Shown: positions 1-3,593 of the stretch, in pieces | How the letters are laid out: each line of letters opens with the position of its first letter | Position numbering within the stretch: the first letter of the stretch is position 1 | From: Methanobacteriota archaeon | GTDB taxonomy: Archaea; Halobacteriota; Methanosarcinia; Methanosarcinales; Methanogasteraceae | Length of the DNA stretch: 30,094 nt | Assembly: GCA_034717055.1 (NCBI GenBank) | Contig: JAYELB010000185.1 | Location: forward strand, 1 to 30,094 | Reading direction: 5' to 3' | Program-made: the position numbers and the translations under genes | The notes under the pieces: generated by a model | What the model saw: only the letters and a program-made list of their open reading frames with translations | What the model was told of the DNA's origin: nothing | The model's database searches: none

Positions 1-170
1 ACGCAGGTGCACATGATGCATACTGCTGCAACCCACTGATCAAGGTCTGCTTCGCTGACCCATCACTGGTATTCGACTTCGCTGACATCAGGAAGGAGTA
101 CGCAAAGGGTGCGATGCGAACCTTCCGGCCAGCAGGCGAGCGCAGTCTGGTTATACCAGCAGGCGTATAG
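1..170 (+). CDS. mcrA: Methyl-coenzyme M reductase alpha subunit, 3' end (partial, runs off the window's left edge)
   Basis: Frame starting at nt 3 translates to [55 protein letters not shown], with TAG at 168-170. [10 protein letters not shown]...FDF...KGA.R.F.PAGERSL.IPA is the conserved McrA C-terminus. Too short for the ORF track. Confidence 0.95.
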
Positions 171-204
171 GCGACATAGTCGCCTTTCCTTTTTTCTTTT
201 TTTC
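169..204 (+). terminator. mcr operon terminator: hairpin plus oligo-T tracts
   Basis: AGGCGAC-ATA-GTCGCCT 7-bp stem (169-185) followed by two T7 runs, directly after the mcrA stop. Confidence 0.75.
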
Positions 205-512
205 TTGTACCAAGCGTCAGCTTCTGTTGTTTGGGGTATGTAATGCACGAAAGAGCGCAAAAACAAGGATATGAGTATTAAGTATCTACATTTTATATTT
301 GCATTTCTTGTTTACCCGACCATAAGATGTAAAACCACAGAGAGGACAGGCGTGCTGAGATAAGTTCATACTCGCCGGCTGGTGAAAATCCAGCCTGAGT
401 AAAGGTTAGTCACCACCTCAGAACAGAACCCCGCACGCAGTCTGGTAACAGGCTGCAGCGTTTGCATCGTCCTAACGGACATGGTTGGAGCACTCAGTGG
501 TTGCTTGTTTTG

Positions 513-851
513 TCGAACCAGATGCCAGTTTCGTTCATTAACTGCTTTTGTGATTCTGGTTTGCAGCCTGTTAACATGTTCTTCAACATTTGCCGTATGT
601 GTTTAGCTGTAATCTCATGGTTGGCTAATCCTACTTTGTCACATTACAGACAAATCAATAACGGGCGATGACATGACCCCAAACCGTTTGGAAAACAAAA
701 CCAACATCAAGCGCCTGAATGCGTGGTTAATCTGACAAAGTAATACTAAACACGTACCATTTGCCCAGTTAATACCGGTCCACTGTGGTTTAAGTTGAAT
801 GTATGTAAGTCTCTCGCTTTTTAATGGCGTAATTGAACTACTTACATTCTC
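513..851 (-). pseudogene. N-terminal remnant of a group II intron-encoded reverse transcriptase/maturase, interrupted by a MITE
   Basis: Removing 595-757 plus one TSD copy restores the frame ENVSSSITPLKSERLTYIQLKPQWTGINWANVEEHVNRLQTRITKAVNERNWHLVR, the W..I.W...E..V..LQ.RI.KA motif typical of intron RT N-termini. An AAGGAGG RBS sits at 865-859, but the start codon is lost and the rest of the RT is absent. Confidence 0.8.
595..757. mobile_element. 163-bp MITE with 12-bp terminal inverted repeats and 8-bp target duplication
   Basis: TIRs GTATGTGTTTAG (595-606) and CTAAACACGTAC (746-757), 1 mismatch. Direct repeat CATTTGCC at 587-594 and 758-765. Subterminal inverted repeat TACTTTGTCA (632-641) / TGACAAAGTA (733-742). 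Confidence 0.85.
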
Positions 852-1308
852 AGGTTTGCCTCCTTGCATACAATGAAACACCAATTTGGTAAGTCAGCAC
901 CATTTCTGGCTAATGCAAATTTTGAACCTCTATCCGATCCATTACAGATCGATATTTGCTTTTTACTGAATCTTCTACGCCCTATGCCATCGTTTGCCCT
1001 TACGGGGTCACTACCCGGTTTTCCCGGGAGCATATAGGGCGAACCCGGGTTCTACATCACAGATAATTATAAAAACCTTAGAAGCCATCTGTAAGCCGGG
1101 AACCTTATGTCCATTCCCTATAACGTCAATCCAGCCAGTATAGTCCGATTCCTCACCTTTTGGTCTAAGCGTACAGGTGGATCTCATGGATGCTTAACAA
1201 CACACATATAGTGGGATGTTATCATCGAGCCTGCATTTGGGTAAGTTATTTATTGGGGCTTACCTTACGGAAATGCTGCCCGATACTAAAAAGGATTATG
1301 AGATGCGC

Positions 1309-1384
1309 AAGCGTGTATGAGGTGAAAGTCTCACGTACCGTTCTGAGATGAGGAGTGGCGGGTAACTGCCCCCCCTTAATCGGC
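1309..1384 (+). ncRNA. Group II intron domains V and VI (mutated)
   Basis: AAGCGTGTATGAG-GTGAAAGT-CTCA-CG-TACCGTTC matches the DV consensus GAGC(C/G)GTATGAGGTGAAAGTCTCACGTAC(G/C)GTTC, with a G>A change and one inserted T. DVI is GATGAGG...GGCGG-GTAA-CTGCC...CCTT-A-ATC, with the bulged A at 1378, 7 nt from the inferred 3' end. The end reads GC rather than the usual AY. Confidence 0.8.
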
Positions 1385-1455
1385 GGTTATCATGTCTTGA
1401 CAGAAAGCACAAGATCGCAATCAGGCGACCAATTAGCATACCTGAATAGTCTATT

Positions 1456-2556
1456 TCACAAAAACTCGACATCGTCGTCGACCGGCGTGGTTATGGCGGT
1501 TCCATCGCGAGCGTCGATCATGACGCTACCATTCATACCTTTAACCTCCCAGACTGGCAAGTACACAAGTTCCATCTCGAGATCGATGTCCTTCGCCAGG
1601 GGCCTCACTGTCCTGTGCTCAGTGATGACGGCGCCACCTGATGTACTGGTAGATGCCATGTTTTTCGTATTGCTCTCGATCGCATCATTCAGCATCCCCT
1701 CTCTGGCTTCGATTTTCGCCACGGTAGGACTTTTTATCTCGTAATTCTGACAGGGAACTGATATGGAATCGCACACATTCTGCAAGTGCTCGTGTTTCTC
1801 TCTGTTAAGGGCATTGATCGCGCCCGACCCTTCTGCTGCTATATGTATCGTCTTCGTCTTATACTTACGGTGCGTATCGATGACATATCTATAATTCCAG
1901 AACGGAACAAACTCTATGGCAACGCCGGTTACGCCTCTGACAAACCCCTTCGCAGTCGCGATCGCACGCTTCTCATCCACGCGTATAGCCGCGCATCGAA
2001 GTTGTAGTGCATCACGCGAATCGTCCGCGGCCTCGATGATCTCCAGAATCCTGCCCGCAGAATAGTCCGGATGGTCTTGAGACTCATAGTAGTCCCCATG
2101 TGGTGCATACTTCTGGTACTCCGGAGGTTCATATTCAGGAGACTTCTGGTACTCCGGAGGTTCATATTCAGGAGACTTCTGGTACTCCTGCCCCAGAAGA
2201 TCATAGCGTGCGTCTTCTGCCTCTGCAAGCATCGCCTTTCCGATGCGAATCTCAAGTTCGGCGCGATCCCACATCCTGATGTTGTACTGCTCCGCGAAGC
2301 GCGCCATCCGGTCAGTGATCTCGTCCGATATGAAAATCGAATCGTAAGCCCCCTGCACCGCATCTGCGAAGTACCTCAGATCGGTCTCGGTCCCGCCATA
2401 CTGGATGCAAGTCATCCCGCCGTCCTTCGCAACAACCAGATCAGTTCGCGGATGGGTTCCCCGGATCGGGGGATTCGTATCATACCCCTGCGAACTTAGA
2501 ATATTTGTAAGAAGATCGAATAGGATTTGCTTGTTCACCATATTCCTCACACACAT
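1456..2556 (-). CDS. Hypothetical protein with a possible restriction-endonuclease-like (Mrr-type) N-terminal domain
   Basis: 366-aa ORF. The N-terminal DLVVAKDG...CIQ and later S.I.I....T.....FA...NI.MWDR.EL pattern recalls Mrr-like folds, but the catalytic Lys after Q is not evident. Abuts the cfbC stop. Confidence 0.6.
   Translation of the reverse strand: MCVRNMVNKQILFDLLTNILSSQGYDTNPPIRGTHPRTDLVVAKDGGMTCIQYGGTETDLRYFADAVQGAYDSIFISDEITDRMARFAEQYNIRMWDRAELEIRIGKAMLAEAEDARYDLLGQEYQKSPEYEPPEYQKSPEYEPPEYQKYAPHGDYYESQDHPDYSAGRILEIIEAADDSRDALQLRCAAIRVDEKRAIATAKGFVRGVTGVAIEFVPFWNYRYVIDTHRKYKTKTIHIAAEGSGAINALNREKHEHLQNVCDSISVPCQNYEIKSPTVAKIEAREGMLNDAIESNTKNMASTSTSGGAVITEHRTVRPLAKDIDLEMELVYLPVWEVKGMNGSVMIDARDGTAITTPVDDDVEFL
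2109..2188. repeat. 33-bp coding tandem repeat (about 2.4 copies; EYQKSPEYEPP)
   Basis: Unit ACTTCTGGTACTCCGGAGGTTCATATTCAGGAG starts at 2109, 2142 and 2175 (third copy partial). No spacers. Confidence 0.95.
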
Positions 2557-3354
2557 CTATATATTGAGCAGTTCACGGAGGCTATCATCCTCCATCGGAG
2601 CTGGTATCGCTGAATGTTCGCAGTCCATGATCGCTTTTGCAAGCTTGCGGTACACATCTGCGATTGTAGAGTCCGGTGCACTTTCGAGCACAGAGAACCC
2701 TCGGCGCTCGCAGTCCTGCACGATATCGTCTTTCGGGATAAATGCAACGAGTTCGCTCCCAATTCTGCCAGCAAATTCAGTTATGATCTCTTCTTCTCGT
2801 GGAACGTTTCTTGAATTGCATATTACCCCGCTAAGCGGCATCTTCAGCTTCAAAAGCCCTTTGCAGATGTTGTTTGCAGCATAAATTGGCATGTATTCGC
2901 CTGAAGAGATGATATATGCCTCACTAACAAGCCCCTTTCGGATCGGCGCCACAAAGCCGCCGCATACAATATCCCCTGGCACGTCGTAGATCACAAGATC
3001 GCTATCTGTAAGTGCTGTTGTGATCTTCTGTAGTTCTGTGACCGCAACGATGATCCCCCTGCCAGCACATCCGACACCTGGCTCTGGTCCGCCGACCTCG
3101 ATACATTTTACGCCTTTGTAACCCTCGTAGACGACATTCGCCTCAGATATCTCGGCCCCCTGCCGCATTAGATCCATCACTGTCGGAATCCGCCTACCCT
3201 TAAGCAGCGTAATCGAAGAATCGCTCTTCGGGTCGCAACCGATGATGGTAACTGAATACCCATCATCCGCGCACGCTGCTGCGACATTCGAGGCGGTGCT
3301 GGACTTACCGATTCCGCCTTTGCCATATATCGCTATTCTTCTTGTTTGGTACAT
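2557..3354 (-). CDS. cfbC: Ni-sirohydrochlorin a,c-diamide reductive cyclase, ATP-dependent reductase subunit (NifH-like, F430 biosynthesis)
   Basis: [56 protein letters not shown] and [16 protein letters not shown] match the Methanosarcinales CfbC/NflH type rather than true NifH. Confidence 0.9.
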
Positions 3355-3593
3355 GCGTTCTCAAGCGCTGCTATATACTCCTGATATGCTGAGATCAGAC
3401 CGATTGTTTTGTCCATGAAACCATGAACGCGCTCGTAAAACTCTTTGACATACGCCTCTTCATCCGGACAATCATCTTCTGACAGTTCCGATATTGATCC
3501 GGAGAACTCTGAAAACTCTTTTTCGCGAACATTCACCGCATCACTAAGTTCAAGTAATACTTCTGTATCCATGTTTGAAACTTGCGCGTCCAT
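3333..3593 (-). CDS. Small acidic helical hypothetical protein (86 aa)
   Basis: Overlaps the cfbC start by 22 nt on the same strand, with an AT-rich region upstream. Confidence 0.7.

Follow-up and report, generated by a model that had tools for sequence, protein, structure and literature searches.

The locus and its surroundings

The stretch of DNA analysed here, called the window, comprises 30,094 nucleotides of contig JAYELB010000185.1 (GenBank assembly GCA_034717055.1) from a Methanobacteriota archaeon of the Methanogasteraceae. It is the first 30 kb of that contig (C185), which belongs to a fragmented metagenome-assembled genome (MAG) of 416 contigs, about 80% complete. The window opens within the 3' end of mcrA. 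A mosaic of intron and repeat fragments lies directly behind this gene, at positions 350-1453, and is flanked by the following features.

3 to 170, plus strand: 3' end of mcrA, the last 55 codons and the TAG stop (phmmer against the PDB; open reading frame list)
169 to 195, plus strand: terminator-like hairpin AGGCGACATAGTCGCCT followed by a T-run (pattern scan, a consensus match only)
1456 to 2556, minus strand: open reading frame (ORF), family unknown
2557 to 3354, minus strand: cfbC (NF033200, 414 bits against a cut-off of 402)

The 55 C-terminal amino acids of McrA correspond to residues 507-561 of the ANME-2c MCR alpha chain 9qm5_A (phmmer, PDB, E 9.7e-32), and the ANME-2c enzyme is the best match to this end of McrA among solved structures. 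The stop codon occupies 168-170. The first intron base, at about 350, is 179 bp further downstream, which confirms an earlier estimate of about 180 bp. The hairpin at 169-195 may act as the mcrA terminator.

The order of genes around the mosaic differs from that in two sister species, G008 and G004. In both, the DNA downstream of mcrA is homologous to contig C262 of the present genome (G000), and the block containing the ORF at 1456 and cfbC is preceded by DNA homologous to contig C153. Both places are deep within long contigs in G008. On C153 itself the block that neighbours the ORF and cfbC in the sister species runs into other MITEs and a fragment of the D/F intron family described below. 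Judged by gene order, the mosaic is at a rearrangement point, a synteny breakpoint relative to the sister species. The break fits recombination among dispersed repeats, and the altered order of mcrA and cfbC is consistent with such repeats driving rearrangement in these uncultured methanotrophs.

Anatomy of the mosaic

When 346-1450 was compared with its own genome by BLAST, it fell into modules with sharp limits, labelled A to G, each of which is present in multiple copies elsewhere. Comparison with these other copies divides 350-1453 into seven pieces, whose identity, strand and limits are given below together with the duplicated target of one of them.

350 to 455, plus strand: first ~106 nt, from the 5' end, of an A-type group II intron truncated at 455 (family alignment; module A, BLAST limits 346-455)
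454 to 594, minus strand: D4/ORF remnant of a D/F-type intron, with the N-terminus of its reverse transcriptase (RT), ...NVEEHVNRLQTRITKAVNERNWHLVR (aligned to C9 and C410; module B, 454-594)
587 to 594: left copy of the target-site duplication CATTTGCC (exact repeat)
595 to 757: 163-bp MITE with terminal inverted repeats GTATGTGTTTAG and CTAAACACGTAC, within the RT N-terminus of the minus-strand intron (module C, 621-749)
758 to 765: right copy of the target-site duplication CATTTGCC (exact repeat)
758 to 1173, minus strand: interior of the same D/F intron, from the 3' part of D1 through D4a (copy alignment; module D, 760-1173)
1165 to 1268: final 104 bp, at the right end, of an interspersed repeat of ~200 bp, the E family (copy alignment; module E, 1165-1268)
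1260 to 1384, plus strand: last ~125 nt (pre-DV linker, DV and DVI) of a D/F-type intron of the C49/C392 lineage (RF00029, alignment; module F, 1260-1389)
1385 to 1453, plus strand: ~175-bp G-MITE, right half only, serving as 3' exon to the D/F intron (alignment to uninterrupted copies; module G, 1380-1450)

Modules B, D and F belong together in a single intron family, here called D/F. This follows from two reference copies. The copy on contig C9 is a colinear ORF-less intron, in which an RF02012 match (42-186) is succeeded by D (229-643), B (638-778) and DV/DVI (880-957, 55.5 bits). The copy on C410 carries the RVT_1 and GIIM domains. An overlap of exactly 127 nt (100% identity) links the end of C410 to C392, and the two joined give a full-length intron of ~2.1 kb with an F-type 3' end. 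RF02012, the Rfam D1 model that matches the D/F family, also matches the Methanosarcina acetivorans control genome.

The A-type stub

The 5' exon context of the stub is ...ACAG, at 346-349. The intron 5' end at about 350 is common to about 11 copies in the genome, each of which stands behind a conserved ...ACAG and begins with G(A/C)G(C/T)GCCGAGATAAAT.... Beyond the equivalent of 455 the other copies continue as ATGTGAGGCCGGGG..., which is missing from the window. A weak RF02005 match on the plus strand at 385-494 (21 bits in a permissive Rfam scan of 150-1600) was discounted, because it spans the join at 454/455 and extends into antisense RT sequence.

The usual target of A-type introns can be read from other contigs. 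On C285 and C126 the A-type 5' end comes after ...GATTTCACTG of a 245-bp MITE, and the bases that follow in this MITE (ATTTCAC...) come after a 105-nt class of DV/DVI on C369. By the logic of the empty site, the A-type 5' end and the 105-nt class are assigned to one site in the 245-bp MITE. A-type introns would then home into this MITE and end in the 105-nt DV/DVI class, not in F. Since their target and their DV/DVI class are both different, positions 350 and 1384 are not the bounds of one insertion. A-type introns are also found within other introns: on contig C182 one is nested in the 5' end of a D/F intron.

The minus-strand interior and its MITE

The segment 758-1173 is 80-93% identical to the copies on C9, C299, C410, C269, C373 and C363, and all these alignments stop at 1173. 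All six of these copies have ~230 nt more of D1 upstream of the equivalent position, with the RF02012 match. The antisense interior begins only at about intron position 230; the minus-strand copy lacks the first ~230 nt, that is the 5' part of D1, as well as most of the ORF. A candidate for the missing 5' part, C153:3771-4018, was rejected: it is only ~73% identical to C9 and overlaps positions 230-320, which are already present in the window.

At the other end, the remnant at 454-594 consists of the RT N-terminus, an internal deletion that is also present in C9, and a short piece of the RT domain. It aligns without a break with C9:638-778 (85%). Its part 521-454 aligns with C410:5766-5832, inside RVT_1, and C410:5493-5560 also aligns to the remnant. 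The minus-strand intron therefore runs to 454. Its translation, ...KPQWTGINW... / ...NVEEHVNRLQTRITKAVNERNWHLVR, matches the frameshifted RT of C410, ...KPKWTDVNW... / ...RIAKAVKQGKWYLVKR. The RT remnant contains stops, two internal deletions and a MITE. The antisense copy was probably a D/F-type intron of the ORF-less C9 lineage that lost both ends and was later hit by the MITE.

The insertion of the MITE is plain from the alignments. The 8-bp sequence CATTTGCC is duplicated around it and is held once by other intron copies, five of which (C9, C299, C410, C363 and C194) have no MITE at this site. The point of insertion is between ...INW and NVEEHV... of the RT N-terminus. The element is short and non-coding, its 12-bp terminal inverted repeats are complementary at 11 of 12 positions, and about 16 further copies with up to 99% identity occur elsewhere in the genome, all of which agrees with the definition of a MITE. 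Independently assembled Logan contigs of other intron copies skip 595-757. The genome as a whole is saturated with MITEs.

The E repeat, the D/F 3' end and the G-MITE

The E family is represented by four longer copies and about 30 partial ones and belongs to neither intron family. Other copies reach further left than the fragment in the window, and their flanks diverge to the right of 1268. The fragment stops at a natural terminus of the repeat, ...GGGGCTTACCTTA.

The sense 3' end that follows is recognized by RF00029 at 1307-1384 on the plus strand, with a score of 39.3 bits against a gathering threshold of 40 (E 7.5e-6) in the permissive scan and 30.9 bits in a whole-genome run. Its homology to copies that exceed the cut-off, that of C9 for instance, is clear. 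About 25 other copies can be aligned with it, and their flanks diverge immediately past ...AATCGGC, which ends at 1384. Over 1260-1384 the identity is 91-95% to C49 and about 70-80% to C9.

The G-MITE has GTAAC...GTTAC ends and about 40 copies. The 3' join in the window reads ...AATCGGC/GGTTATC, and uninterrupted G-MITE copies read ...CCTCCGC/GGTTATT, so that the join falls in the usual D/F homing site, ...CCGC/GGTTA.... Near the other end of the G-MITE there is a mirror-image site. The D/F 5' ends on C410 and C363 come after its ...CTCTGC, and on C49 and C336 the F 3' end is followed by GGTTAAATYCCCGGTTTGGTTACAG, the rest of the same mirror-image site. Thus D/F 5' ends (C410, C363) and F 3' ends (C49, C336 and the window) flank matching G-MITE halves. 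From these flanking sequences, the two intron families each appear to home into a MITE family of their own. The left half of the G-MITE was found neither ahead of 350 nor anywhere else in the window. The canonical joins at 349/350 and 1384/1385 therefore belong to two different insertions.

Joins and contiguity

Three joins within the mosaic are irregular. The A stub and the antisense ORF remnant share ~2 nt where they abut at 454/455. At 1165-1173 the D and E pieces overlap in a near-identity of ~11 nt, in which the window has CTAAGCGTACAGG, D copies have CTAAGCGTAACAGTCC and E copies have CTAAGCGCACAGGTGG; the shared motif is CTAAGCGTA.CAG. At 1260-1267, where E (…CTTACCTAA) passes into F (…TTTAACTTACGG), the two agree at about 7 of 8 nt.

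Logan contigs from four runs in three studies were placed on positions 1-2000 of the window. On the left side, contigs at single-copy depth cover 174-582 (X1, 1 mismatch), 145-580 (X2) and 145-582 (X3). None has more than 2 mismatches, and all start in unique flank, pass through A and the 454/455 join and end inside the antisense ORF remnant. On the right side, contigs covering 1337-1914 (X1), 1334-2000 (X2) and 1326-2000 (X3) run from DV through the G-MITE to the unique downstream gene. The left join and the right flank are thus present in independent samples. One X1 contig spans the join of D and E (1077-1236, 8 mismatches). Loose contig ends at 454, 455 and 1173 are the normal continuations of other copies. 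No single contig among those listed, which are short pieces of many copies, bridges 583-1325. The evidence for contiguity of the whole is therefore the MAG assembly, the uniqueness of the k-mers at the junctions and the duplicated target site of the MITE.

An assembly artefact, in which the mcrA and cfbC sides were misjoined through a multicopy intron or MITE or through a chimeric read of the type made by MDA, is a rival explanation that we consider very unlikely. The MAG is broken everywhere by introns and MITEs, the two flanks are not neighbours in G008 and G004, independent contigs leave the middle of the mosaic unbridged, and the longest exact repeats on the path measure 120 nt (MITE) and 71 nt (DV). 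Because the mosaic sits at a rearrangement point relative to the sister species, a mis-join keeps some weight. However, the 454/455 join recurs at single-copy depth in three independent studies. Every k-mer over the three irregular joins, at k=21 and k=31, is unique in the assembly, so mis-traversal of the assembly graph cannot have made them. The path through the longest exact repeat is validated by the target duplication of the MITE and by colinear intron on both sides. The 127-nt overlap of C410 and C392 indicates that the assembler worked with k=127, longer than the other exact repeats. Had the assembly taken a wrong turn within DV, the antisense interior would still lie beside the sense pre-DV piece. 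Exact-pattern scans of public metagenome contigs for both interior joins together, and for 454/455 alone, gave no match. The 454/455 join also had no match in species-representative genomes, a result that carries little weight.

Origin of the mosaic

We judge it highly probable that 350-1453 is a non-functional composite of mobile-element debris that was assembled over several steps. This 1.1 kb behind mcrA holds the dead fragments of at least three intron copies together with three MITE-type repeats and three irregular joins.

The composite lacks what a complete, functional group II intron should have. There is no complete D1-D4 with a 5' splice-site sequence on the strand of DV/DVI: the only long D1-D4 piece is on the opposite strand and minus its first ~230 nt, and the D1 content of the plus strand amounts to just 106 nt of another family. 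Neither an RT and maturase (X) protein nor a clean ORF-less D4 is present. The two ends do not abut the two halves of one target: an A-type context (...ACAG) lies on the 5' side, and on the 3' side stands the right half of a G-MITE, the left one being absent. Nor is the composite a twintron, because the A stub and F come from different families and the antisense piece has neither end. With no complete ribozyme or reading frame left, nothing in 350-1453 is able to splice or move.

The interior and the 3' end most likely stem from different D/F copies, as they rank their relatives oppositely. Identity of the interior to its relatives is 88.6% for C9, 86.4% for G018:C84, 82.1% for both G010:C58 and G007:C29, and 79.1% for C410. 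For the 3' end, where the comparison of lineages covers only ~116 nt, the order is C49 (91.4%), C392, which is part of the C410 intron (83.3%), G007:C29 (79.2%), C9 (69.5%) and G018:C84 (63.3%). The same discordance could, however, be the work of gene conversion among intron copies.

The two outer joins are those of ordinary retrohoming. At 349/350 an A-type intron begins after the ...ACAG exon that is usual for it, and at 1384/1385 a D/F intron ends in a G-MITE, its usual target. The third intron copy, the antisense D/F interior, and the 104-bp E fragment lie between these ends. The irregular joins would then be the result of deletion or illegitimate recombination among neighbouring or dispersed elements, not of one inversion. 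The join of E and F may instead be an insertion of the E element, because E ends there at its natural terminus. The order of events is not reconstructible from one locus.

Two introns inserted head to head at the mirror-image sites of one G-MITE were also considered as a source of opposed intron strands. A pattern search of 27 family genomes, of low power in fragmented MAGs, found no doubly occupied G-MITE, which leaves the idea unsupported without refuting it.

Another history would derive the antisense interior together with the sense 3' end from one ORF-less D/F copy, the E fragment having been captured as filler. One route would be a 5'-truncated insertion followed by local inversion, the other an aberrant retrohoming that involved a second priming or template switching. 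The latter route resembles twin priming, by which LINE-1 5' inversions arise. Such an origin is favoured by the canonical join of the 3' end to the G-MITE, by a succession of pieces like that in a 5' inversion, and by the microhomology at the joins. In a C9-like parent the breakpoints, the antisense end at ~778 and the sense start at ~840, would be only ~60 nt apart, a closeness expected by chance in roughly one case in eight by our rough estimate. The opposite ranking of relatives speaks against it, as does the fact that the ORF-less C9 lineage retains its own type of 3' end in two species. Furthermore, the left flank is an A-type stub and not the left half of the G-MITE. The combination of an antisense interior with a sense 3' end has no second case in the genome, and relatives with both parts have them colinear. 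A single D/F copy is accordingly an unlikely source. Less likely still is the particular version in which one aberrant retrohoming of an ORF-less D/F intron into the G-MITE, by twin priming or template switching, captured the filler and the 3' end was later gene-converted. If true, group II introns would have a natural counterpart to the 5' inversions of LINE-1.

The first-pass annotation of this DNA had read 348-1384 as a single group II intron with most of its RT deleted and its interior inverted. Several of its observations were correct. DV/DVI is on the plus strand, as is the 5' end, there is no inverted repeat at the joins, and the minus strand does carry an intron interior with an RT N-terminus, recognizable in six copies of which one has RVT_1 and GIIM. 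The limits given to these parts were not. The D1 hairpin that was thought to continue on the plus strand to ~512 is cut at 455, and 456-512 is antisense RT remnant by alignment to C9 and C410. The proposed breakpoint at 512/513 does not exist, as the minus-strand intron passes through it. That at 1260/1261 is likewise misplaced, as this intron ends at 1173 and 1174-1268 is an unrelated repeat. The TTGAGCCCC motif seemingly restored by re-inversion is a product of joining at the wrong breakpoints. The failure of the putative EBS1 loop (1103-1113) to pair with the flank of 348 is uninformative, because the two belong to different introns. The same annotation had named two observations that would tell against it, namely reads failing to span the junctions and covariance models failing to recognize the minus-strand segment, and these came out differently. 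Independent contigs do span the left join, at 454/455, but covariance models did not match the minus strand: Rfam models at gathering thresholds gave no match in the whole window, no D1-D4 model reaching its threshold, and the permissive scan of 150-1600 gave nothing credible on that strand. Such a match is not to be expected, because the modelled D1 (RF02012) is situated in the lost 5' ~230 nt.

Sense intron ends flanking an antisense interior, with its D4 end to the left and its D1 end to the right as an internal inversion would leave them, do recommend a single inverted intron, but the two plus-strand ends differ in family, target and 3' end class, the interior and the 3' end are of different lineages, and re-inversion rebuilds no intron known in the genome, leaving D1 of the interior's own family without its 5' ~230 nt and a foreign 104-bp repeat before DV, so that this reading is barely credible. 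The fallback offered with it, a recombination of intron copies, is closer to the evidence but understates the number of elements and joins involved.

Comparison with known systems

The composite behind mcrA represents ordinary mobile-DNA decay in a very repeat-rich ANME-2 archaeon, in an unusually dense graveyard. The locus itself is of little importance: the DNA is dead, and a terminator-like hairpin that belongs to mcrA precedes it. It is of more use as a worked example from this lineage. An apparent rearranged intron turned out, after alignment of copies, to be pieces of several elements, and such loci are therefore not to be read as single elements. The by-products of the analysis are, in our judgement, more interesting than the mosaic.

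Like a LINE-1 insertion made by twin priming, the mosaic has a sense 3' end at a canonical target join, preceded by an antisense segment from further 5', and it shows microhomology together with a small loss of sequence at the point of inversion. Unlike in twin priming, where both segments come from one RNA copy, the segments in the window are of different lineages, as the opposite rankings and the persistence of the C9 type of 3' end indicate. A target-site duplication is absent, the sequence upstream is something other than the second half of the target, and the structure is non-recurrent.

Most intron copies in prokaryotes are described as truncated and sited among other mobile DNAs (Dai and Zimmerly 2002, reviewed in PMC4424553). 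The mosaic resembles the truncated introns in that account in being intergenic and non-functional, in lacking ends and ORF, in its situation amid mobile elements, and in leaving the housekeeping gene unaffected. It differs from those described there in that two intron and three repeat families are crowded into 1.1 kb with one piece antisense, and in its position directly behind mcrA at a synteny breakpoint. It is another case of fragmentary introns among mobile DNA, neither a twintron nor a functional intron.

The introns of M. acetivorans are among the closest parallels. They are reported to nest as many as five deep and to have undergone deletions between copies, and its twintrons are attributed to homing into other introns (PMC4424553, section 'Twintrons'). 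The likeness to that account extends to a related archaeal host, ORF-less derivatives, insertion into mobile elements (here on C182) and the loss of copies through recombination. In contrast to the twintrons of that section, the window has no outer intron that resumes past an inner one, and its irregular joins are not homing joins. Moreover, compared with M. acetivorans as portrayed there, the introns of this genome prefer MITEs over intron ORFs as targets.

Intron families and their probable MITE targets

The D/F-type group II introns, the family to which the antisense interior and the sense 3' end (F) of the mosaic behind mcrA belong, appear, from their flanking sequences, to have as their target a MITE of ~175 bp, which has the ends GTAAC...GTTAC and is present in about 40 copies. 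Two mirror-image insertion sites are found in this MITE, ...CCGC|GGTTAT... and ...CTGC|GGTTAAAT... The loci behind this pairing, all in the MAG that contains the window (G000), are:

Window 1385-1453
C410:4717-4860
C363:6381-6550
C49:150-180
C336:122-150

The F 3' end followed by the right half of the ~175-bp MITE is also found in relatives (G006:C215, G017:C93 and G017:C155). The MAG contains a single full-length D/F intron, which is divided between two contigs:

C410:4860-6799 plus C392:1455-1262 (minus strand), full-length D/F intron; the contigs overlap by exactly 127 nt

Its RT/maturase gene is interrupted by several frameshifts, and thus an intact intron-encoded protein is not seen in the G000 assembly.

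A second family, the A-type, begins unusually, with G(A/C)G(C/T)GCC, and its DV/DVI is 105 nt long. The apparent target of these introns is another MITE, ~245 bp in length and present in more than 80 copies in the 2.35-Mb MAG; they enter it at ...GATTTCACTG|ATTTCAC... The loci behind this pairing, also in G000, are:

C285:8778-8965
C126:2641-2733
C369:52-234
C13:4273-4518

Each of the two intron families appears to be tied to its own MITE family, which may merit a separate study.

Another truncated intron is found in L039 (G018:C84), a locus of a sister-family genome. Here a C9-type intron, of an ORF-less lineage within the D/F family, occupies positions 235-1024 and begins only at its own position ~169. 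Directly 5' of it, positions 210-236 are the last 27 nt of the DVI of another intron. This arrangement is another case of a truncated or nested intron.

Gene order around mcrA and cfbC

Two genes follow the mosaic:

1456-2556, minus strand, ORF of 366 aa with a tandem peptide repeat, PEYQKSPEYEPPEYQKSPEYEP...
2557-3354, minus strand, cfbC (NF033200, 414 bits)

The 366-aa ORF has no family match in Pfam or NCBIfam. It is retained at 85-88% nucleotide identity in genomes of the same genus. This ORF is where contigs of G009, the closest relative, and some of the run contigs are interrupted or leave sequence out, as in a 1485->1734 joint. In sequencing run X4, a 12-nt duplication, TCTACATTTTAT, follows window position 284, in the unique DNA that separates mcrA from the mosaic; it is a strain variant.

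The NF033200 match identifies cfbC as the reductase subunit of Ni-sirohydrochlorin a,c-diamide reductive cyclase, which participates in coenzyme F430 synthesis. The gene order of window 1-350 and 1454-3400 is unlike that of the sister species (L034, G008:C42; L035, G008:C158; L036 and L037, both G004), in which DNA similar to contig C262 of G000 comes after mcrA, and DNA similar to contig C153 of G000 comes before the ORF1456/cfbC block. The corresponding ends in G000 all adjoin repeats. The distance from cfbC to the mcrA stop is 2.4 kb, and the convergent arrangement of the two genes is found only in G000.
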